A stretch of DNA of 13,149 nucleotides from Candidatus Iainarchaeum sp. (GTDB lineage: Archaea > Iainarchaeota > Iainarchaeia > Iainarchaeales > GCA-2688035), in contig JAQTNI010000026.1 of assembly GCA_028713935.1 (NCBI GenBank), positions 5,626 to 18,774 on the forward strand, given 5' to 3'. This document shows, piece after piece, positions 635 to 11,416 of this stretch. Under the pieces are notes generated by a model, which did no database searches, was not told the origin of the DNA, and was given only the letters and a program-made list of their open reading frames with translations. Made by a program: the position numbers and the translations under genes. How positions within the stretch are numbered: position 1 is the stretch's first letter; every line of letters begins with the position of its first letter.

Positions 635-2503
635 TTAAATTCTTTCCGCTTCGAATACCTGCGGAAGTTTTCTTATTTTTTGCATTATTTTTTCCAGTTG
701 TTTTGCCTGCTGGATTCTGACATTGAACAATGCATTCACTGCCCTGCTTTTGTCCTCTTTTGCGCTTGTTGAAACAAGGCTTGCTCCCGAAGAAGAAATA
801 ATGTTTAAAATTCCCGGCAAAAGGCTCGAGGATTCCCTTGCCTTTACCTGTATTTTTACTGCAAAAAATTTTCCAGACCCCATTTCCCAGTCCATTTGCA
901 CAATTTTTTCTTTTCCCGCTTTCAGGATATTTTCGCAGTCCGCCTTGTGCGCAATGATTTTTCTTTTTGTGGTTTTCAATCCGATTATCTCTTCGCCCGG
1001 CAGCGGGTTGCAGCATTTTGCGATTTTTACATTGCTGTTTCCAGTTGTGACATTCTTTCCCGGCTTTGCTGTTTTTTTTATTGCAGGCAACTTCAGCCCG
1101 AGTTTTTGCCGTATTTTTGCCTTTGCTTTTTCAGATTTTGCAAATCCAAGCCAGTCCCTTTTTACCTGCACAGTTTGGCTTGGAATTATTTCTATTGTGT
1201 CAGCATTTTCAATTTTATAGTCAAGCGGGACTATTTTTCCATTGGCCTTGGCTTTCTGGCATTTTAAGCCAAGGTCAGAGTGGATTGCAAAAGCAAAGTC
1301 AACAGGAGTTGATTTTCCCGGCAGGACAACAACCTTGTTTTTCGGGGTTAATGCAAAAATTTTGTCTTCCCCAAAATCTATTTTCAATGAATCCACAAAT
1401 TTGCTTGTTTTTTTCTTTGCCCTGAACCCCTCAATTATTGCCTGGCCCCAGCCCAGTTTTGCGTCAAAATACCTGTTTGCAGGGTACTCTTTGTAAGCCC
1501 AGTGTGAGGCAAGGCCAGTTTCATTGTCCCAGTGCATTTCCATTGTTCTAATCTGTATTTCCACTGGCTTTTTTTGCCAGACAATCACTGTATGAAGCCC
1601 CCTGTAATTGTTTTCCTTCGGATTAATTATATAATCATCAAATTCCTGCGGCACAATTGTGTAATTTGAATGGATAACCCCGAGAATTTCATAGCATTGC
1701 TTTATTGAATCGCAAATTAGCCTTATGCCACGCAAATCCGGCAGTTCCTCGAATTTTTTTCCCAGATTCATTTTTTTGTAAATTGAAAAAAAATGCTTTG
1801 GCCTGCCTGAAATGCTTGCTTTTATTTTTTCTTTTTTTAAAAGGCAGCTTATTTCTTCCGCAATAATCCTGATTTCTTTTTCCCTCGTCCCCCTTTGCTG
1901 CCTGACAAGGGCTTTTATGTTGCCAAATTCTTTTGGGTTTAGTGCCTTGAAACAGGAATCTTCAAGCTGCCATTTCATTTGGTGAAGCCCAAGCTTGTCG
2001 CAGATTGGCACGAAAATTGCAAGGCAGCGCTTTGCAAAATTTTCTTTTGCGTTTTCATCAAGAACAGCATCGCTGCCTAGCGAGTCAAAAGCAGAGGCAA
2101 GTATAATCAGCACTGCCCTGATATCGCGTGCAACAGCCAGGATTACATTTGAAAGGAGCTCGTCTGAAAAATTCTGGAAATTTTTTTCCTCTATCTGGAA
2201 TGCCTTTGCGCATTCTTCCACAATTTCGGCTATTTCTTCGCCAAAAAAAGAATTTATTTCTTCTCTCTTTGTGTTTCCTGCGAGAAAAGTGTCGTGCAGC
2301 AATGCAGAGGCAATTGTGGCGTCGTCTGTGCCTGTCTGTGCCATTAGCAAGGCAACATTGAGAATGTGCTGTATTGCAGGCGAATCTTTTTTTGCAGCCT
2401 GTTTTTCCAGTGCAAACTCAAATGCTTTTTCCAAAAGCTTCCTGTCCGCTTTTGGATTGAATTTTCTTGCTTCTAGGAGGATATCTTCGAAATTTTTTTG
2501 CAT
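635..2503 (-). CDS. Long RelA/SpoT homologue (RSH): HD-like domain, (p)ppGpp synthetase, TGS, Zn-finger and ACT/RRM domains. The hydrolase motifs appear degenerate (RelA-like).
   Basis: 622-aa ORF. HD-like N-terminus with H46 and H70-D71 (ALLHDTF). Synthetase motifs: SGRPKHFFSIYKKM, DLRGIRLI, EFDDY, YRGLHTVI, VEIQIRTMEMHWDNETGLASHWAYKE. TGS: IFALTPKNKVVVLPGKSTPVDFAFAIHSDLG...ANGKIVPLDYKIENADTIEII. Zn-finger/CC: CCNPLPGEEIIG...IIAHKADCENI. C-terminal ACT/RRM-like: FAVKIQVKARESSSLLPGILNIISSSGASLVS. Confidence 0.9.
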   Translation of the reverse strand: MQKNFEDILLEARKFNPKADRKLLEKAFEFALEKQAAKKDSPAIQHILNVALLMAQTGTDDATIASALLHDTFLAGNTKREEINSFFGEEIAEIVEECAKAFQIEEKNFQNFSDELLSNVILAVARDIRAVLIILASAFDSLGSDAVLDENAKENFAKRCLAIFVPICDKLGLHQMKWQLEDSCFKALNPKEFGNIKALVRQQRGTREKEIRIIAEEISCLLKKEKIKASISGRPKHFFSIYKKMNLGKKFEELPDLRGIRLICDSIKQCYEILGVIHSNYTIVPQEFDDYIINPKENNYRGLHTVIVWQKKPVEIQIRTMEMHWDNETGLASHWAYKEYPANRYFDAKLGWGQAIIEGFRAKKKTSKFVDSLKIDFGEDKIFALTPKNKVVVLPGKSTPVDFAFAIHSDLGLKCQKAKANGKIVPLDYKIENADTIEIIPSQTVQVKRDWLGFAKSEKAKAKIRQKLGLKLPAIKKTAKPGKNVTTGNSNVKIAKCCNPLPGEEIIGLKTTKRKIIAHKADCENILKAGKEKIVQMDWEMGSGKFFAVKIQVKARESSSLLPGILNIISSSGASLVSTSAKEDKSRAVNALFNVRIQQAKQLEKIMQKIRKLPQVFEAERI

Positions 2504-2556: not shown

Positions 2557-3288
2557 ATGAAAGGTGCGCTTTTTCCTGGTGTTTTTTTGAAGCTGAAACT
2601 CCCTGTTTTGTTCATTAATTTCAAGGCTTATGAAGAAGCCACTGGCAAAAAAGCCCTGGCTCTCGCAAAAAAAGCAGAGGCAATTGCAAAAAAATCCAGG
2701 GCTTCAATTGTTTTGGTTGTGCAGGCAACTGACATTTTTTTTCTTTCAAAAAAATCTTTTCTTCCCCTGTTTGCGCAGCATGTTGACCCGATTGAATATG
2801 GCAAGCACTCTGGCTGGATTTCTCCCGGCTCTGTAAAACAGGCAGGCGCAATTGGAACTGTTTTGAATCACGCGGAGCACAAGCTGGAAAATCCTGTCCT
2901 TGAAAAGGCAATTGCCCTTGCAAAGGGCGCAGGCTTGCTTGTAATGGCCTGTGCAGAGAACCTTGAAAGGGCAAGGCAGATTGCTTCTTTTTTCTCAAAG
3001 CCGGATTTTATTGCAATTGAGCCGCCAGAACTTATTTCCCGCGAAGATGTTTCAGTCAGCACTGCAAGGCCTGGGCTTATTTCAGATTCTGTGAATGCAA
3101 TAAAGCAAATTGCCCCCGGGATAACTGTAATCACGGGCGCAGGAATATTCAATTCCACTGATGTTTCAAAGGCAATTGAGCTTGGCACTTCAGGGGTTTT
3201 TGTTGCAAATAAAATTGTAAAAGCCGCTGACCAAAAAAAAGCAATTCTTGATTTGGTTTCAGGTTTAAAAACTGATAAGAAGAATTAA
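2557..3288 (+). CDS. tpiA: Triosephosphate isomerase, archaeal type
   Basis: LFINFKAYEEATGKKALALAKKAE (catalytic Lys in NFKAY), GTVLNHAEHKL (catalytic His) and FIAIEPPELIS (catalytic Glu) match the archaeal short TIM layout. The N-terminus is ~17 aa longer than usual, so TTG at 2587 (in frame) is an alternative start. Confidence 0.9.
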   Translation: MKGALFPGVFLKLKLPVLFINFKAYEEATGKKALALAKKAEAIAKKSRASIVLVVQATDIFFLSKKSFLPLFAQHVDPIEYGKHSGWISPGSVKQAGAIGTVLNHAEHKLENPVLEKAIALAKGAGLLVMACAENLERARQIASFFSKPDFIAIEPPELISREDVSVSTARPGLISDSVNAIKQIAPGITVITGAGIFNSTDVSKAIELGTSGVFVANKIVKAADQKKAILDLVSGLKTDKKN

Positions 3289-3308: not shown

Positions 3309-3336
3309 AATTTAAAAAATTTTGAGGGTGTTTTGC

Positions 3337-4464
3337 ATGGTTGTTGCTTCCGATTTAATGGAAAAGGATTTTTTGAGAATTGAAAAGGACTCTGTTTTGT
3401 CGCAGGCCATTGGAAAAATGGTTTCTTCAAAAAAGCCTGCTGCGCTTGTTTTTGACAACAATGCTTTTGCAGGCCTGGTTTCAATAAAAATCCTTGCCAG
3501 GAAAACAATTTCAAATCCCTCTGAAACAAAAATCGGCTCTCTTGCGGAATCAATGCCAGTGCTTAAAGAAACAATGCCTATTGAAAAAATCGCTGACCTT
3601 CTTTTTTCAAGCGACGCAAGGGTTTTGCCGGTAGTGAAAAACAGCGCTGTTATTGGCGTGGTTTCCCTGGTTTCAGTTGCAAAGGCAATCGCCTCAATGC
3701 CTGAAATAAAAAAAATTCCCCTTTCAAAAATTGTCAGGAATGCGGTTGTCCTGACTGAAACAGATTCTGTTGGCAGGGCAATTGCATTGATGAAAGAAAC
3801 AAATTCCCTCAGCGCCGCTGTTGTTGATAAAAATTCAAGGCTGATTGGAGTGGTTTCCCTGGAAGAAATCGTGAAAAAATTCCTGCTTTTGCAGAAAGAA
3901 AAATACCGTGCCTCCAAATATTCAAGCGGCGGAACTTCAGGCTCAATAAACCCTGAAAAAGATTCCATGGCAAGCACTCTTGCCCGCAACGAAATGTCAG
4001 AAAATTTTGTTTCAATTGGGCCGAACGAAACAGTCCTGAGGGCTGCTTCTCTCATGGCTTCAAGCAATGCCAGTGAAATAATTGCAGAGGAAAATTCAAG
4101 GGTTCTTGGAATTGTTTCCGCAAAAAACATTCTGCCGTTGCTTCAGTCCCTGAAGCCAGCAAAAAACATTCAGATTGCAAAAATGCCGGTTGTAGATGAA
4201 ATTGACAAGGCAGAACTAATCGGGTTTATTGACAAGGTTTATGACAAAATTGCAAGGATTGTTCCAGGAGAATTTTCCCTGCATGTGCATTTTAAGTCCC
4301 ATGAAAAAGGCGGTGCAAGGAAAAAGCACACTGTTCACTTAAAACTGGTGACGCCAAAAAAAACAATTGTTTCAAAAGCAGTTGACTGGAAGCTCTTGAT
4401 TGCAGTTAAAAATGCAGCGGACTCCCTTGAAAGGGAAACAATTGGCTTTGTAAAAAGAAAATAG
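3337..4464 (+). CDS. Four tandem CBS domains (two Bateman modules) fused to a C-terminal HPF/RaiA (S30AE)-like domain
   Basis: I prefer ATG 3337 (MVVASDLMEKDF...) over the track's TTG 3322. The SD-like gagggtg lies at 3324-3330. There are four CBS-like repeats, each ending in h-G-h-V-S: AFAGLVSIKIL, VIGVVSLVSV, LIGVVSLEEI, VLGIVSAKNI. The last ~97 aa (about 4168-4461) are IQIAKMPVVDEIDKAELIGFIDKVYDKIARIVPGEFSLHVHFKSHEKGGARKKHTVHLKLVTPKKTIVSKAVDWKLLIAVKNAADSLERETIGFVKRK. By eye this aligns with the beta-alpha-beta-beta-beta-alpha pattern of E. coli HPF/YfiA (...DMYAAIDGLIDKLARQLTKHKDK). Confidence 0.8.
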   Translation: MVVASDLMEKDFLRIEKDSVLSQAIGKMVSSKKPAALVFDNNAFAGLVSIKILARKTISNPSETKIGSLAESMPVLKETMPIEKIADLLFSSDARVLPVVKNSAVIGVVSLVSVAKAIASMPEIKKIPLSKIVRNAVVLTETDSVGRAIALMKETNSLSAAVVDKNSRLIGVVSLEEIVKKFLLLQKEKYRASKYSSGGTSGSINPEKDSMASTLARNEMSENFVSIGPNETVLRAASLMASSNASEIIAEENSRVLGIVSAKNILPLLQSLKPAKNIQIAKMPVVDEIDKAELIGFIDKVYDKIARIVPGEFSLHVHFKSHEKGGARKKHTVHLKLVTPKKTIVSKAVDWKLLIAVKNAADSLERETIGFVKRK

Positions 4465-4470
4465 TTTTTT

Positions 4471-4710
4471 TTATCTTTTTTTCTTTTTTTTCTTTGCTTT
4501 TGAAGCCTTTTTTGGCCTTGCTTTTGCCTTCTGCTTTGATTTTTTGGCAGGTTTTTTCTTTGGCATTCTTGAAGGCTTTTTGCTGCGAACCTTTTTCCTG
4601 CGCTCCCTCATTGTGGCAGGCATGAACAGCTCCAAATCAGTGCTTTTTTCTTCGCGGAGCTCTCTTCGCATCTCATCAATAATGTCCTTGACTGTTTTCC
4701 GCTCTTCCAT
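4471..4710 (-). CDS. Small basic protein with an acidic/helical N-terminus and a poly-Lys tail (hypothetical; possibly nucleic-acid binding)
   Basis: 79-aa ORF: MEERKTVKDIIDEMRRELREEKSTDLELFMPATMRERRKKVRSKKPSRMPKKKPAKKSKQKAKARPKKASKAKKKKKKR. A TATA-like ttttatata on the minus strand (about 4753-4762) lies upstream. The low-complexity tail makes the coding status uncertain. Confidence 0.4.
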   Translation of the reverse strand: MEERKTVKDIIDEMRRELREEKSTDLELFMPATMRERRKKVRSKKPSRMPKKKPAKKSKQKAKARPKKASKAKKKKKKR

Positions 4711-4896: not shown

Positions 4897-5280
4897 CTAG
4901 CTTCCAATTCCTGCGCCAATAACTGCACTGCCTGCAATGCATTTTGTTTTGTGCTTTTGCTTGAATTGTTTTACTCTGTCAAGGCGTTTTGCCCAAACTG
5001 CATGTGTTTTTCCTCTTTTTGCATAATCCTGCTGTAATTCCCATGCAGCCATTTCACCAGCTGCATTGTGAAAGTTCGAGCTGGCAAAAAATTTTTTCCA
5101 TTCAGCGTTTGTTTTTCGCGAAACTAATTTTTCAGCTGCTTCAATGCCGGAATTTGTTAGTGCGCCACTGCCAAGGGCCATTCCTGCAATGACTGTGGCT
5201 TTTCTAATTCTCCGCCTTCTCGGGCTTTCAATTTTTTTCTTGGCATAGGTTAGGGCAGGGATTGCGTTTTGTTGTGTCAT
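4897..5280 (-). CDS. Hypothetical protein with two glycine-zipper-like hydrophobic segments (putative small membrane protein)
   Basis: The track ORF 4897..5346 begins at a TTG. In-frame ATGs lie at 5301 and 5280. The palindromic TATA-like gttaattaac (5302-5311) sits 23-30 nt upstream of ATG 5280, favouring MTQQNAIPAL... Segments VIAGMALGSGALTNSG and CIAGSAVIGAGIGS (extreme C-terminus) look like GxxxG/glycine-zipper helices flanking a ~75-aa K/R/Q/W-rich helical region. Confidence 0.55.
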   Translation of the reverse strand: MTQQNAIPALTYAKKKIESPRRRRIRKATVIAGMALGSGALTNSGIEAAEKLVSRKTNAEWKKFFASSNFHNAAGEMAAWELQQDYAKRGKTHAVWAKRLDRVKQFKQKHKTKCIAGSAVIGAGIGS

Positions 5281-5504
5281 TGTCAAATCAGCTATTAACA
5301 TGTTAATTAACTTTCCGCGGGGCTTTGCACGTAAAGTCAAGTTCAACGGTTCAAATCAAACTTGTCTTTGATAAAACTCCAAAATTTATCCCAAAAGTCA
5401 TCAATTTCTTTTGTTATTGCCAAAGACTAAAATCTGCCATAAACTCACTTCTTTCTCGCTGTGCTCCAATAAGGGCTTTTGCATTTTTGGGTCTCCAAAT
5501 TTGA

Positions 5505-6632
5505 TTAATATTTATTTAATATTTTTTTTAATTCTTTTAAAAATTCCCTGGTATCTGCAAAATAGTTAGGGTATGCTTTTTCAAGTTCTTTGGCGGTATC
5601 TACCCCAACAAGAACCACATCGTATTGCTTTTGTCCGTGATATTTTTTTTCAGCATTATTATACGCTTCAACTGCTTCTTTTTCTTCGCCCATTTTATAA
5701 GTTATAATTTTAAGTTCAGATGCAGTTTCTTCTGCAACATTTAGCTCCAATAAAAAGTATTGTGTCTGTTTCCTTTTATTTTTTTTTTCCTTTGACCCCT
5801 CTTTTGTGTCCCAATTTTTCATCGCATTTATTCCTCTTGTCCAGCTTTCAAGCCTATGCACTACATTTAATTCAGCTTCTTTCTTCTTGATTGCTAGATA
5901 AAGCTCTTTTTCATTATTTGGGGTGTTTGGGACAATGGGTAAGTTTTCGTTTTTAGCAAAAGCAGAACTTACGAGCTTAAAAAATTCTTTCCAATCCTCG
6001 CTTCCCTCGTTTGATTTTATTGCCTGCTTAGTAATAAACCCTGCTATTTCCACTGCTGTTGCCCATTGGTGTTGCAATTTAGACCTAAATTGAAGTTCAA
6101 TTAGCAGTCCATTATTAAAGATTTTTTTCCCTTTTTTATCACTATAATATTCATAAACAAGATGATAACTTCTGTAGCCATCCCTTTTTGGTTTTGAGAT
6201 ATAATCATTTGTTTTTACTTGTCTATGTTTTAAATTCACTTTTAGGTTGTAATACTGTTCATATAATCGCTTTGTTTCCATAACCGTTGGCATAATTGCC
6301 CGGCATCCGCCAATATCCTGCATATCGTAGAGTGTTATGGCATGTTTACGACCAGAATACTGCTTTGTAAGTTTGTAAAGAATAGCTGGAACACGTTTTA
6401 ATCTCTGCGCAGTTAATGCGTTTTTGTTTACCTCATTAGCTTTTGATTTTAGTCTTATTTTGAATACGTGCATCGGGTAACCGTGTGCTGCTCTCCAATT
6501 GTCCATAATTTTCATTGCTTCTTCCTTTTGTTCTTGAGAACTTGCAGGGTTTATTAGAACATTCCCGGCAGCAGTTATTTGTTCTTTGCTATATTCGGGT
6601 TTTATCCAATTCATGTTATACTTTCTGCGCAT
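5505..6632 (-). CDS. Stand-alone RelA/SpoT (RSH synthetase-fold) domain protein with a ~140-aa C-terminal extension. Candidate toxSAS, with CapRel-like fused architecture.
   Basis: 375-aa ORF. Synthetase-fold motifs: AQRLKRVPAILYKL, DMQDIGGCRAI, YISKPKRDGYRSYHLVYEY, LIELQFRSKLQHQWATAVEIAGF. There is no HD, TGS or ACT domain. The C-terminal ~140 aa (…YFLLELNVAEETASELKIITYKMGEEKEAVEAYNNAEKKYHGQKQYDVVLVGVDTAKELEKAYPNYFADTREFL…) is unassigned. A TATA-like tttaaata (minus strand, 6645-6638) is centred ~27 nt upstream of the second ATG (6614, MNWIKPEY...), which may be the true leaderless start. Confidence 0.85.
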   Translation of the reverse strand: MRRKYNMNWIKPEYSKEQITAAGNVLINPASSQEQKEEAMKIMDNWRAAHGYPMHVFKIRLKSKANEVNKNALTAQRLKRVPAILYKLTKQYSGRKHAITLYDMQDIGGCRAIMPTVMETKRLYEQYYNLKVNLKHRQVKTNDYISKPKRDGYRSYHLVYEYYSDKKGKKIFNNGLLIELQFRSKLQHQWATAVEIAGFITKQAIKSNEGSEDWKEFFKLVSSAFAKNENLPIVPNTPNNEKELYLAIKKKEAELNVVHRLESWTRGINAMKNWDTKEGSKEKKNKRKQTQYFLLELNVAEETASELKIITYKMGEEKEAVEAYNNAEKKYHGQKQYDVVLVGVDTAKELEKAYPNYFADTREFLKELKKILNKY

Positions 6633-7487: not shown

Positions 7488-8441
7488 TCAGCTTTCCACG
7501 TCTTCTATTCCGTGCTCTGTTACCCTGAAAATTGCTTCCCCGTCAGGCAATGAAGGCGAATCAACGAGTTTTGCGACTCTTTTGTCTTCCTTGCTTTTGC
7601 GCAGGTAAATTCTTGTTTTGCTGTTATGCGCAACAATGTCCCCTCCAATCGGAGTTGTTGGGTCGCCAAACAAAATTCCCGGGTTTTGCATTACCTGGTT
7701 TGTAACTAAAACAGCAATGTTGTTCATTTCCGCAACTTTCATCAGTGCGTGCATGTGCTTGTTCAGTTTTTGCTGCCTGTCAGCCAACTGGCCCCTTCCA
7801 ATAAATTCAGACCTGAATTGCGCAGTAAGGGAATCAACTATTATCAATTTTATTCCTTTTTCCTTTATTATTTCATCGGCTTTTTCCGCAAGCAATATCT
7901 GGTGGTCTGAATTGTAAGCCCTTGCCACTAAAATGTTTTTCAAAACTTCTTCCTGGTTTAATCCAAGGTGTTCTGCAATTGCAATTATTCTTTCCGGCCT
8001 GAAGGAATTTTCCGCGTCAATCCAGAGGCATGGCCCGTTAAGCCCTCCTTTTTCAACTGGCAATTGGACTGTTACTGCTGCCTGAAAGCACACCTGTGTT
8101 TTGGCGCTTGCAAATTTTCCATAAATTTCTGTTATGCTTCCAGTTTCAATGCCGCCGCCAATCATTGAGTCAACGTCTTTGCTTCCTGTAGTAATTTTTC
8201 CAACAAGCTTTCTTCTTTCGGCAATTTTGTCTGCTGTTTCAAAGCCCATTTCAAGGGAGTCCCTTGCAGCCCTGATTGCTTTTGTTGCAGTTGCCTCTCC
8301 AAGGCCTGCTGCTTCAACAAGCTCCGCAGGGGAAGCAATTGCAATGCTTTCAACTGTTTTATAGCCTGCAGCCATTAGTTTTTCTGCTGCCTGTGTTCCA
8401 ATGCCAGGCAAATCCTCTATTTCCTTTATCTGTTTCCCCAT
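7488..8441 (-). CDS. radA: DNA repair and recombination protein RadA (archaeal Rad51/RecA homologue)
   Basis: N-terminal HhH domain: IEDLPGIGTQAAEKLMAAGYKTVESIAIASPAELVEAAGLGEATATKAI. RecA core: LIIVDSLTAQFRSEFIGRGQLADRQQKLNKHMHAL, VLVTNQV, PIGGDIVAHNSKTRIYLRKSKEDKRVAKLVDSPSLPDGEAIFRVTEHGI. I prefer ATG 8441 (MGKQIKEIEDLPGIG), which is preceded by a strong SD GGAGG (complement of 8449-8453, 7-nt spacer). The track's ATG 8522 would add 27 hydrophobic residues. Confidence 0.95.
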   Translation of the reverse strand: MGKQIKEIEDLPGIGTQAAEKLMAAGYKTVESIAIASPAELVEAAGLGEATATKAIRAARDSLEMGFETADKIAERRKLVGKITTGSKDVDSMIGGGIETGSITEIYGKFASAKTQVCFQAAVTVQLPVEKGGLNGPCLWIDAENSFRPERIIAIAEHLGLNQEEVLKNILVARAYNSDHQILLAEKADEIIKEKGIKLIIVDSLTAQFRSEFIGRGQLADRQQKLNKHMHALMKVAEMNNIAVLVTNQVMQNPGILFGDPTTPIGGDIVAHNSKTRIYLRKSKEDKRVAKLVDSPSLPDGEAIFRVTEHGIEDVES

Positions 8442-8643
8442 AACAATTCCTCCTTGGGCCAGCCATTTGAAGCAATTAATTTGGGAAATAATTGCCACTT
8501 GGGCTGCCAATTCAATAAGCATAATGATTGGATGCTTTTAAATAGTTTTTAGAGTGCACTTCCGCTATTCCGTCTCTTAAGAAGAATCAATATATTTTTA
8601 TTTAATTATGTGCATTAAATAATTATAAAAAAAAGGTGTTTTT

Positions 8644-9237
8644 TTGGCGCGAACCATTACTTTGTCTGTTTCTGATAATACTTTTGAATTGATGCGGAAG
8701 CATCCCGAAATCAATTATTCTGAACTGGCCAGGCAGAGGATTAACGGGTATCTGGCTTCCCTTTCCGAGAAAAGGGTTGTTTCTTTCGATTTTTTAGTCC
8801 TGAAGGATTTGATTTTTGCTCCGGAAAAAATTGTTGAAATTCATAATAGGATTGAGAAGAACCACAAGATGATGCGCACTCTTTCTTGGGTTGAATCTGT
8901 TTTTGACCTGGATTTGTTTGACAGCCTGTCAAAGTTTTTGCACGAGTTTGCAAGGGTTCATCCTTTTGAAGATGGCAATAAAAGAGCTTCTTTTGTCTGC
9001 GTTGATGCCTTTTTGCGGCTGAATTTTATGAAGCTTAGAATTAACCAGTCTTCAAAAAAAACTACTGATGATGAAAAGTTTTTTTGGCAGAACGCAAACA
9101 TGCAGAAGCCGCTTGATGAAATAAGGATTTTCCTCAAAAAGCATGTTGTTGAATCCCGAAGGCCAAAAAGCGTTGAGGCAGCTGTTTTTGATTCAATCAG
9201 CGAAAACAAAATTCTGCTGGAACGCCTTGCCCTTTAA
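8644..9237 (+). CDS. Fic/Doc-family protein (Doc-type HxFxDGNKR motif) with an N-terminal ribbon-helix-helix-like segment
   Basis: The Doc-type motif HPFEDGNKR lies at 8959-8985 (residues 106-114), followed by ASFVCVDAFLRLNF. The N-terminus MARTITLSVSDNTFELMRKHPEINYSELARQRINGYL has the strand-helix-helix pattern of CopG/Arc/MetJ RHH domains. The start is TTG 8644, 5 nt after the SD-like aggtg (8634-8638). The first in-frame ATG would delete the RHH strand. Confidence 0.8.
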   Translation: MARTITLSVSDNTFELMRKHPEINYSELARQRINGYLASLSEKRVVSFDFLVLKDLIFAPEKIVEIHNRIEKNHKMMRTLSWVESVFDLDLFDSLSKFLHEFARVHPFEDGNKRASFVCVDAFLRLNFMKLRINQSSKKTTDDEKFFWQNANMQKPLDEIRIFLKKHVVESRRPKSVEAAVFDSISENKILLERLAL

Positions 9238-9635
9238 TGCTTTCTAATCAGGACAACAAACAGTTCATCCAAAGTCAATCCTTGTTTTGACAGGAATTCC
9301 TTGATTTCTTTTTCAGTGTTTTCCCTGTCTGCAGTCAAATATTGGTGTGTTGCAACAATGTTTTTTTGTTCCTTGAGCATTTTTGTCTGGCACGAGTCTG
9401 TCCATTCGTCAATAATAATTTTGTTTTGATTGTTTTTTGCTATTGCACTGGAAAGCATTGTTTTTTCGGAAAACGGCAGTCCAAAAATAACTATATTTTT
9501 TGTTTGCACTGCAAGCTCTGAAGCAATAACACAAAGAAGCCTATTATTTTCAATCTCCAAAGTTTTAACAATCCTGAAACCAAAACTTTTTTCCATTTCA
9601 AAATTCTTGAAAAACAGGCTTAAATGCATTTTCAA
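9234..9635 (-). CDS. Hypothetical protein (133 aa; possible start at ATG 9596)
   Basis: An ORF with typical local codon composition. Its 3' end overlaps the Doc-like gene's stop by 4 nt in convergent orientation. It contains NIVIFGLPFSEKTMLSSAIAK...KIIIDEW. I recognise no confident family. Confidence 0.5.
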   Translation of the reverse strand: MKMHLSLFFKNFEMEKSFGFRIVKTLEIENNRLLCVIASELAVQTKNIVIFGLPFSEKTMLSSAIAKNNQNKIIIDEWTDSCQTKMLKEQKNIVATHQYLTADRENTEKEIKEFLSKQGLTLDELFVVLIRKH

Positions 9636-10102: not shown

Positions 10103-11416
10103 TTATTTTTTTTCAATGCTTCTTGCTGTTATTTCCAGTTCTGAAGAAAAAGAGTTTTCTTTTATTTTTCCCTGCAATGTGATTTCCGAGTTCCAGAGTT
10201 TGCCCCTTATTTCATCGAGAGTTTCTTCCAAACCTGCTTCCGCAATTTTTTTTTCAATTTCTTTTGCGCTCAGCCCAATCAGTTCTTCCGCTGTTTTGCC
10301 GTAAAAAACAGAATTAATGCTTCCGCTTTCATCGCCTATTTTCACTGAAATCACTGCGCTTGGCACTGATTCTTTTTGTTCTCCGCAGTTTTCGCACAAA
10401 AAGCTTTCTTCCATCTTAATTGCTTTTTTTCCGCATTTCGGGCAGGTGTTGAACAACAATTTTCCAGAGCCGATTTCAAGGATTTTCCCGTTTATTTCAA
10501 CAAGGGCATCGTCCTTGTGCAAATTGGAGATTTTCTTTTTTGTCACGTCAATTCCGCGCAGTTCCATTGCGCTTGGCAATTCCTCTTCAATTTTCGGGTT
10601 TTTTATTATCCTTGCTTTGTAGCCAAGATGCAGTTCAATGCCTTTCAGGCCCTGCTTTGTGTAAGCGCCCTCTATTTTCACCAAATCGTTTTCCGCTAAT
10701 TTTTCTGTTTCGTTTGCAATGTCATTCCAGGCAGTTGCCCTTATTGAATTTGTTTTGTCAGCAATAAGAAAATTTGCAACTTTTCCGGAAACATTTTCTT
10801 TTTTGAATTCAGTGGCTGGAAAAACCCGCAGAATGCGCACAATTGCATTCACATCGCTCAGGCCAGGCTGCAATTCGTCAAGCCTGAAAACCTTGTTTTC
10901 AATTTTTGGCAAAAAACCACTGTCCACGCCTGTTGGATTAACTGAAAGCTCTCCCTGGTATGACAGGTTAAGCTGGGCTTTTTCCTTGAAGCTGGTAACA
11001 TAACAATTTTTGAGTTCAAGGACAGAGCCTTTTTCAGCTCCCTGCTCCTGGATTTTTTTTACATCGTCATGCCAAAGAGTCAGCCTGATTTCGCCTGAAT
11101 CATCCGCAACAATAAGATTGCAGAGCCTGCCTTTTTTCCCGTTTTTTTCAAATTCCTTTGGGGCAAAAATCTGCATTACCTTCACAAGCAAATCAACATT
11201 GCTCATCCCATCTTCAAGCTGTTTTATCTTCATTCTTTCAGAGCTTTTGTCAAGCTCAAGGCCAAGCTCCTTTGCAACCATCAAAGCAGCCCCGCTTTCA
11301 GTGAGCAGGCCAGCAAATTTTTCCTTTTTTGACTCAATTTTTTCAAGGATTTCTTCTTTCGGCTTGCCGCTTTCCGCGACAATTTTTTCAACAAGAGAAA
11401 TAGAAGTTGTTTCCAT
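10103..11416 (-). CDS. Replication protein A (archaeal RPA/RFA single-stranded DNA-binding protein with multiple OB folds and a zinc ribbon)
   Basis: 437 aa. N-terminal helical module: LVEKIVAESGKPKEEILEKIESKKEKFAGLLTESGAALMVAKELGLEL. Repeated OB-fold segments: NLIVADDSGEIRLTLWHDD and NFLIADKTNSIRATAWNDIA. C4 zinc ribbon: CPKCGKKAIKMEESFLCENCG. This is the typical euryarchaeal-type RPA layout. Confidence 0.9.
   Translation of the reverse strand: METTSISLVEKIVAESGKPKEEILEKIESKKEKFAGLLTESGAALMVAKELGLELDKSSERMKIKQLEDGMSNVDLLVKVMQIFAPKEFEKNGKKGRLCNLIVADDSGEIRLTLWHDDVKKIQEQGAEKGSVLELKNCYVTSFKEKAQLNLSYQGELSVNPTGVDSGFLPKIENKVFRLDELQPGLSDVNAIVRILRVFPATEFKKENVSGKVANFLIADKTNSIRATAWNDIANETEKLAENDLVKIEGAYTKQGLKGIELHLGYKARIIKNPKIEEELPSAMELRGIDVTKKKISNLHKDDALVEINGKILEIGSGKLLFNTCPKCGKKAIKMEESFLCENCGEQKESVPSAVISVKIGDESGSINSVFYGKTAEELIGLSAKEIEKKIAEAGLEETLDEIRGKLWNSEITLQGKIKENSFSSELEITARSIEKK

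Follow-up and report, generated by a model that had tools for sequence, protein, structure and literature searches.

A probable member of the archaeal HibA/AHA ribosome hibernation factor family in the DPANN lineage Candidatus Iainarchaeum

Results

The hibA gene and its start

We analyzed a stretch of 13,149 nucleotides (nt) from Candidatus Iainarchaeum sp. (GenBank assembly GCA_028713935.1, contig JAQTNI010000026.1, positions 5,626 to 18,774 of the forward strand), which as a whole is called the window here. The gene under study, 3337..4464 on the plus strand, begins with an ATG at 3337 and encodes 375 amino acids (aa) plus a stop codon. The product has an isoelectric point (pI) of 9.7 and consists of four CBS domains followed by a domain resembling the bacterial ribosome hibernation factors HPF and RaiA. 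Because it very probably belongs to the archaeal HibA (= AHA) family, the gene is called hibA below. HibA has been described from Pyrococcus abyssi (PAB0961) and T. barophilus (Madru et al., preprint October 2025, Nature Communications April 2026; PMC13324472), and AHA from Haloferax volcanii (HVO_2384; Souza et al., bioRxiv February 2026; PMC12934967).

In the open reading frame (ORF) listing, the frame for this gene was TTG-initiated and spanned 3322..4464 (plus strand). The TTG at 3322 was ruled out as the start, since homologues begin at the methionine equivalent to the ATG and a conserved Shine-Dalgarno (SD)-like motif lies inside the would-be extension. The closest homologues, at 375-376 aa, start with the residue corresponding to ATG 3337. 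In the window the motif reads GAGGGTG (3324..3330, plus strand) and lies 6 nt upstream of the ATG, and a GAGGG or GGAGG was kept 6-8 nt 5' of the ATG in all six related loci that were aligned. The homologue N-termini and the conserved motif thus support the preference for ATG 3337 in the initial annotation. An A/T-rich, TATA-like TTTAAAAAA at 3311-3319 (plus strand) may serve as a promoter element. The ratio of nonsynonymous to synonymous substitution rates (dN/dS) was 0.14 for the whole gene in comparison with an orthologue of 83% identity and 0.23 with one of 63% identity; for the HPF part alone, the same two orthologues gave 0.10 and 0.22. Both modules, the CBS tetrad and the HPF part, are under purifying selection (dN/dS 0.10-0.23).

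The CBS tetrad and the loop between CBS3 and CBS4

A Pfam scan revealed four CBS stretches (E 1.9e-30), the best-scoring of which covered residues 133-182. An AlphaFold2 model of the whole protein, built on a 10-sequence alignment, had a predicted local distance difference test score (pLDDT) of 84.5 and showed a CBS tetrad, a disordered segment at residues 187-209 and a C-terminal domain with β-α-β-β-β-α order. Pfam and the model, in which the four CBS units had a pLDDT of ~90, together placed the units as follows, all on the plus strand. CBS1 (residues 1-58, 3337..3510), with modelled secondary structure from a helix at residues 4-7 to one at residues 50-55, and CBS2 (residues 59-120, 3511..3696) form Bateman module 1, while CBS3 (residues 121-184, 3697..3888) and CBS4 (residues 216-272, 3982..4152) form Bateman module 2. 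The four repeats and two Bateman modules that had been read from the translation were therefore borne out by both methods. A G-h-h-S-x-x-[E/N] motif was kept in CBS3 (GVVSLEE) and CBS4 (GIVSAKN), and not in CBS1 or CBS2. Read against the G-h-h-S/T-x-x-D/N motif of CBS domains in general, this pattern is a small hint of nucleotide binding, and it matches the site used by HibA/AHA.

Between CBS3 and CBS4 lies a Ser/Gly/Lys-rich loop of 31 residues (185-215, 3889..3981, plus strand), delimited by the model and by alignment to HibA. Its residues 187-209 had a pLDDT below 50. The loop aligned with residues ~187-207 of P. abyssi HibA, and its PEK motif was conserved in relatives. By analogy, the loop would be the counterpart of the loop that HibA/AHA carries for the peptidyl transferase centre (PTC), the 'PTC loop', and its insertion into the PTC may be expected from that correspondence.

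A Foldseek search with the full model, in a PDB copy running to 2026-04-08, was dominated by the CBS tetrad. The matches were SriA (E 1.4e-20), Sso3205-AMP, AMPK-gamma, MJ1225, SriD/SriC and Dri, and no HibA entry of the 9SR* series was among those listed. As this search was uninformative on the C-terminus, the C-terminal domain was modelled alone.

The C-terminal domain has an HPF/RaiA-type fold

The C-terminal domain comprises residues 273-375 (4153..4461, plus strand), as delimited by the models, Foldseek, PF02482 and the profile called A5 below. Its modelled elements are β1 (278-281), α1 (288-308), β2 (314-323), β3 (329-338), β4 (343-350) and α2 (353-374). The pI of the domain is 9.95, a value that would suit rRNA binding. 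Scanned alone, the last 98 residues matched PF02482 (Ribosomal_S30AE) with an E of 9.3e-5 and 23.5 bits, against a gathering score of 23.7 bits; in the whole protein the match covered residues 297-366 with 19.9 bits. The NCBIfam model TIGR00741 (yfiA) gave an E of 0.042 and 14.3 bits versus a cutoff of 40.9. At the level of sequence the HPF signal is therefore real, if borderline, and the assignment was tested by structure and by profile.

The domain-only model (residues 270-375, on an alignment of 50 stand-alone relatives) had a pLDDT of 93.3, a predicted template modelling score of 0.81 and the expected β-α-β-β-β-α order. Its Foldseek matches in the PDB at ranks 1-33 were all HPF, RaiA/YfiA/protein Y, plastid pY, MPY or RafH, with template modelling (TM) scores of 0.52-0.74; the first unrelated fold, a double-stranded RNA-binding domain (dsRBD), came at rank 34. 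The initial annotation had proposed an HPF/RaiA-like domain here and had named this fold comparison as the decisive check, with a match to another domain as the outcome that would speak against it. The fold agreed, the suggested Pfam comparison returned the borderline hit given above, and no other domain matched the region.

Profile searches pointed in the same direction. A profile of six close sequences of the domain (A2) matched a single entry in the PDB, HibA, with an E of 0.03. The broader profile A5, made from the window domain and its 50 stand-alone relatives, matched HibA first (E 4e-4), followed by ~15 bacterial HPF/RaiA/YfiA chains with E values from 7e-4. We also searched the C-terminal profile against 1.84 billion representative proteins (clusters at 50% identity, E <= 1e-3). 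This census returned 303 clusters of two kinds, stand-alone proteins of ~100-115 aa and proteins of ~370-390 aa with the domain at the C-terminus, the latter being CBS-fused. Among 100 of these relatives scanned with Pfam, 37 had CBS domains and 29 had PF02482 (best E 1.2e-9). The two kinds reproduce the picture published for archaea, in which the HibA/AHA family occurs in 47% of 4,026 archaeal genomes, or 2,723 of 6,968 GTDB species, and stand-alone HPF-like proteins are found mostly in DPANN and Nitrososphaerales (PMC13324472, PMC12934967). The domain is a homologous archaeal branch and not a canonical bacterial HPF.

Full-length similarity to HibA/AHA

A phmmer search against all PDB sequences gave 9sr9_H (392 aa) as the best match (E 1.4e-29, 106.9 bits). 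Residues 6-369 of the window protein were collinear with residues 8-369 of this chain, in an alignment that spans tetrad, loop and C-terminal domain. The chain is deposited as 'Dehydrogenase'; according to the data-availability statement of the HibA paper, 9SR9 is HibA-ATP on the P. abyssi 70S ribosome, and 9SR9 to 9SRF together with 9T7H are P. abyssi 70S-HibA complexes (PMC13324472). The second-best match was 9l96_a, a 406-aa 'CBS domain-containing protein' (E 3e-15) that is present in 9l96, 9l98, 9l9c and 9l9v and whose alignment reaches the first elements of the HPF-like region. It is probably another HibA/AHA structure; a literature search for PDB 9L96 found no relevant paper.

[quoted passage not shown] Every structural feature of HibA/AHA that could be looked for was present in the window protein, namely four CBS domains, the loop, the HPF fold, the insertions and full-length homology. 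The order of the parts is the same, with four CBS units, a long CBS3-CBS4 loop and a C-terminal HPF/RaiA domain bearing the two insertions. The lengths are also similar (375 aa versus 392 for HibA and about 400 for AHA), and all of these proteins are archaeal. The window protein differs in being very divergent in sequence and in having a CBS3-CBS4 loop that is ~10 aa longer than that of HibA and Ser/Gly-rich. At the putative ribose-contact positions CBS3 has E and CBS4 has N, whereas both are D in P. abyssi. The host also differs from those of the described proteins, as it belongs to a DPANN lineage that carries a long RelA/SpoT homologue (RSH) as well. Database names are generic ('CBS domain-containing protein'), and a PADLOC scan of the window HibA protein gave no match to a defence family.

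The RSH, tpiA and hibA neighbourhood

Immediately upstream of hibA lies tpiA (2557-3288, plus strand), which encodes an archaeal-type triosephosphate isomerase (Pfam TIM, E 9e-24). It is preceded by a divergent gene for a long RSH (635-2503, minus strand) with HD_4, RelA_SpoT, TGS and ACT domains. The start of the RSH gene and that of hibA are 834 nt apart, and the arrangement is as the initial annotation had described it. The order of RSH (minus), tpiA and hibA (plus), a gene for a 79-aa basic protein (minus) and, further on, orf84, radA and RPA was kept in all related loci that were long enough, down to 51% HibA identity. The tpiA-hibA pair was present in loci L001-L008 and, even at a HibA identity of only 31%, in L009 and L010. 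The gap between the two genes measured 48 nt in the window, 36 nt in L009 and 8 nt in L010. Contigs of the 31%-identity type are 1.9-2.2 kb, too short to show whether RSH is present. A homologue of the haloarchaeal type had an unrelated gene context. As the pair persists to 31% HibA identity, tpiA-hibA may be an operon in the Iainarchaeum clade that joins a glycolytic enzyme to an AMP-binding hibernation factor.

The three GTDB-representative genomes with close relatives are metagenome-assembled genomes, two of them named Candidatus Iainarchaeum/ainarchaeum. Other genes of the window are archaeal in type (archaeal TIM, RadA, RPA), and the best PDB match of the RSH was mycobacterial Rel (E 2e-110). 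The RSH carries HDTFLAG in place of the hydrolase motif HDxxED, and EFDD (EXDD, RelA type) in place of RXKD as its synthetase motif; both were kept in L006 and L001. This suggests a RelA-like, synthesis-only enzyme. RelA/SpoT genes have been found in 69% of Diapherotrites (= Iainarchaeota) and reported as bacterial acquisitions (PMC8407392).

The 79-aa gene (4471-4710, minus strand) is convergent with hibA, begins 7 nt past its stop codon and is in a fixed position beside the tail-less HibA. Its product has a pI of 11.0 and a Lys-rich tail, its N-terminal 36 aa are 83-97% identical across L001-L008, and it had no Pfam match.

Other genes in the window

A 375-aa protein with a RelA_SpoT domain (5505-6632, minus strand) matched the PADLOC candidate defence family PDC-S33 (E 1.9e-111) and aligned over its full length with PDB 7ztb_A/9erv_A (E 2.7e-43). 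We take these chains to be the fused toxSAS-antitoxin CapRel(SJ46), whose trigger is a phage capsid protein. The gene has the appearance of an archaeal defence gene of the CapRel type, with toxSAS and antitoxin fused. Both this gene and the adjacent ORF of 149 aa (4897-5346, minus strand) were absent from all syntenic relatives and lie in a dip of GC content (0.34 versus ~0.40 elsewhere), which suggests an inserted island.

A Fic/DOC-domain protein is encoded at 8644-9237 (plus strand; Pfam E 4.4e-9, weak PADLOC matches to PDC-S04), and the end of its gene is overlapped by 4 nt by a convergent ORF of 133 aa (9234-9635, minus strand). Among the relatives, the Fic protein was confined to the two closest, L005 and L006, and the 133-aa ORF to L006. 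The two genes may form a toxin-antitoxin or defence pair. Genes for RadA (7488-8522, minus strand) and an RPA-like single-stranded DNA-binding protein (10103-11416, minus strand) lie in the conserved block with hibA.

Discussion

We place the gene in the archaeal HibA (= AHA) ribosome hibernation factor family, as a member from the DPANN Iainarchaeum lineage, with a probability of roughly 0.88. The analysis showed the domain architecture and fold, homology at the family level, selective constraint and a conserved context, and ribosome binding, translation inhibition and nucleotide binding would follow for the window protein from homology. Several observations count against the placement. The PF02482 score is 0.2 bits under the gathering score, so that the assignment rests on fold, profile and full-length collinearity, and the C-terminal domain taken alone is weakly similar to P. 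abyssi HibA (E 0.03). The window protein ends 6 residues past the aligned helix, as opposed to 23 in P. abyssi HibA, and therefore lacks the C-terminal tail of ~17 residues which in the latter is close to the SD:anti-SD duplex; more distant relatives carry Lys/Arg-rich tails. Finally, AMP and ATP had no visible effect on ribosome binding of P. abyssi HibA (PMC13324472), so that even the reference protein offers no proof of the 'sensor switch' step.

The published structures suggest how such a protein would act. The C-terminal HPF/RaiA-like domain of HibA/AHA binds the mRNA/tRNA channel of the 30S subunit like bacterial HPF (PMC13324472, PMC12934967). In P. abyssi the CBS tetrad takes three positions on the 50S subunit (PTC, uL5 and L1 stalk), and loop 190-207 enters the PTC around the universally conserved A2602-equivalent adenine (PMC13324472). 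By homology, the basic C-terminal domain of the window protein would lodge at the decoding centre, in the mRNA/tRNA channel of the 30S subunit, the N-terminal four-CBS disk would sit over the tRNA sites of the 50S subunit, and the long CBS3-CBS4 loop would reach the PTC. With one part on each subunit, a single polypeptide would then bridge both, excluding mRNA and tRNA and holding the idle 70S ribosome together in a protected state. The CBS module of P. abyssi HibA binds AMP, ADP and ATP with dissociation constants of 12, 65 and 113 uM (PMC13324472), and in AHA two AMP molecules were found at the CBS3/CBS4 junction (PMC12934967). The tetrad of the window protein may likewise bind adenine nucleotides at this junction, with the P. 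abyssi preference of AMP over ADP over ATP, as a possible energy-state input.

A single protein combining sensor and hibernation factor, as the initial annotation had envisaged, has been demonstrated experimentally in P. abyssi HibA and H. volcanii AHA (PMC13324472, PMC12934967). Its statement that CBS proteins are seen on hibernating archaeal ribosomes was also right, as Dri, SriA-D and HibA/AHA illustrate. As to its coupling of hibernation to energy or alarmone state, the homologue P. abyssi HibA binds AMP, ADP and ATP and not GTP or GMP, and no evidence of a functional (p)ppGpp/RSH link was found.

Three other explanations were weighed. One is that HibA of Iainarchaeia is controlled by (p)ppGpp from the neighbouring RelA-like long RSH, either transcriptionally or through binding to the CBS tetrad. 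It is encouraged by the RSH / tpiA-hibA layout, which recurs in every long-enough related locus, and by the intact RelA-type synthetase motifs (EFDD). Guanine nucleotides are ligands of some Bateman modules, for example that of IMPDH. Expression of hibernation factors in bacteria is under (p)ppGpp control (PMC12934967). The conserved block also holds Ser- and Lys-tRNA synthetases, RadA, RPA and other housekeeping genes, however, so that the RSH adjacency may reflect no more than synteny in a single clade. Moreover, the RSH gene is divergent, tpiA stands in between so that hibA is not in an operon with RSH, and the distant tpiA-hibA contigs are too short to show RSH. The CBS module of P. abyssi HibA gave no signal with GTP or GMP in isothermal titration calorimetry (PMC13324472). 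We consider such control unlikely. The RSH-hibA adjacency is weak evidence of a functional link because it lies inside a larger housekeeping syntenic block and is seen in one clade only.

As a second explanation, the protein could be a CBS-tetrad regulator whose main job is something other than hibernation, such as an HhpR-like transcription regulator or a nucleotide-dependent partner of proteins in replication and recombination, with a generic RNA- or protein-binding α/β module at its C-terminus. Stand-alone CBS tetrads do have non-ribosomal roles (HhpR belongs to family CM-3), and HibA of Thermococcales was pulled down with replication and recombination proteins (PMC13324472). The window gene shares its conserved block with radA and RPA, a proximity that is probably coincidental in relation to those pull-downs, and weak dsRBD matches appear in Foldseek from rank 34. 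Yet the best full-length relatives are HPF-fused, ribosome-bound proteins and not HhpR-like ones, the NCBIfam HhpR model scored 30.9 bits against a cutoff of 520, the fold matches of the C-terminal domain are overwhelmingly HPF/RaiA, and both the PTC-loop position and the two archaeal HPF insertions are retained. We regard a main role outside hibernation as very improbable. Still less probable is a chance resemblance of a small α/β domain to HPF, in a gene that would then be merely a 'CBS domain-containing protein'. The Pfam shortfall of 0.2 bits, the TIGR00741 E of 0.042 and the generic database names would suit it, but sequence, profile, predicted fold and full-length homology agree, and PF02482 is found in 29 of 100 domain relatives with E values down to 1.2e-9. 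The A5 profile and the domain-only Foldseek results effectively refute it.

The C-terminal domain has the β-α-β-β-β-α fold (TM 0.6-0.74) and basic character of bacterial HPF/RaiA (YfiA, pY) and long HPF, to which it is similar at profile level, and in the homologous HibA/AHA structures the domain occupies the same 30S site as these. In contrast to the bacterial proteins, the domain is the C-terminus of a fusion with a 272-aa CBS tetrad and has nothing after it. The window protein is neither a stand-alone protein (~95-115 aa) nor the bearer of the dimerisation domain of long HPF, and it gave no sign of 100S dimer formation; its domain has the archaeal-specific insertions and falls narrowly short of the Pfam threshold. 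By structure, the nearest neighbour of the CBS tetrad is ribosome-bound SriA, with SriC/D and Dri also close. Published phylogenies place the CBS module of HibA/AHA beside the SriA / CM-5 / Dri-N group of large-subunit binders. Dri of Thermoproteota and SriA-D / ARC-A/P of Methanosarcina differ in being without an HPF domain: Dri is built of two CBS tetrads, and each Sri protein consists of a tetrad alone. The distribution of Dri/Sri is reported to be largely exclusive with that of HibA/AHA. AMPK gamma shares the disk fold of four CBS units (Foldseek E ~4e-17, TMt 0.64-0.70), and the adenine nucleotides of AHA occupy sites equivalent to those of AMPK gamma (PMC12934967). Sequence identity to the window tetrad is 13-17%, and the similarity is one of fold only. 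No kinase or beta-subunit genes were found in the window by ORF list and Pfam, and the output of HibA/AHA is steric blockade of the ribosome and not kinase regulation.

The finding carries little weight as a discovery. The CBS-tetrad and HPF fusion, its ribosome-bound structures, AMP binding and wide archaeal distribution entered the literature from October 2025 to April 2026; architecture and mechanism are thus already known as HibA/AHA, and the window protein is an unremarkable further member. The initial inference, made from the sequence alone, proved correct. Of modest value is the placing of a tail-less, long-loop HibA in an uncultured DPANN lineage with a RelA-like long RSH. What remains new is the layout of RelA-like long RSH and tpiA-hibA, conserved in Iainarchaeum relatives. 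Iainarchaeia might keep an HPF-type hibernation factor beside a bacterial-type stringent factor, with RSH, tpiA and hibA acting as one starvation module in which (p)ppGpp controls hibA expression or binds the CBS tetrad. We hold this to be a long shot; if true, it would contradict the current statement that archaea have no stringent-response route to hibernation. Since the AHA preprint describes archaea as lacking the stringent system (PMC12934967) and RelA/SpoT is present in Diapherotrites, this lineage would be a natural place to test the link. The conserved tpiA-hibA pair and RSH offer a concrete locus at which the coupling of alarmone or energy signalling to ribosome hibernation could be tested in archaea.

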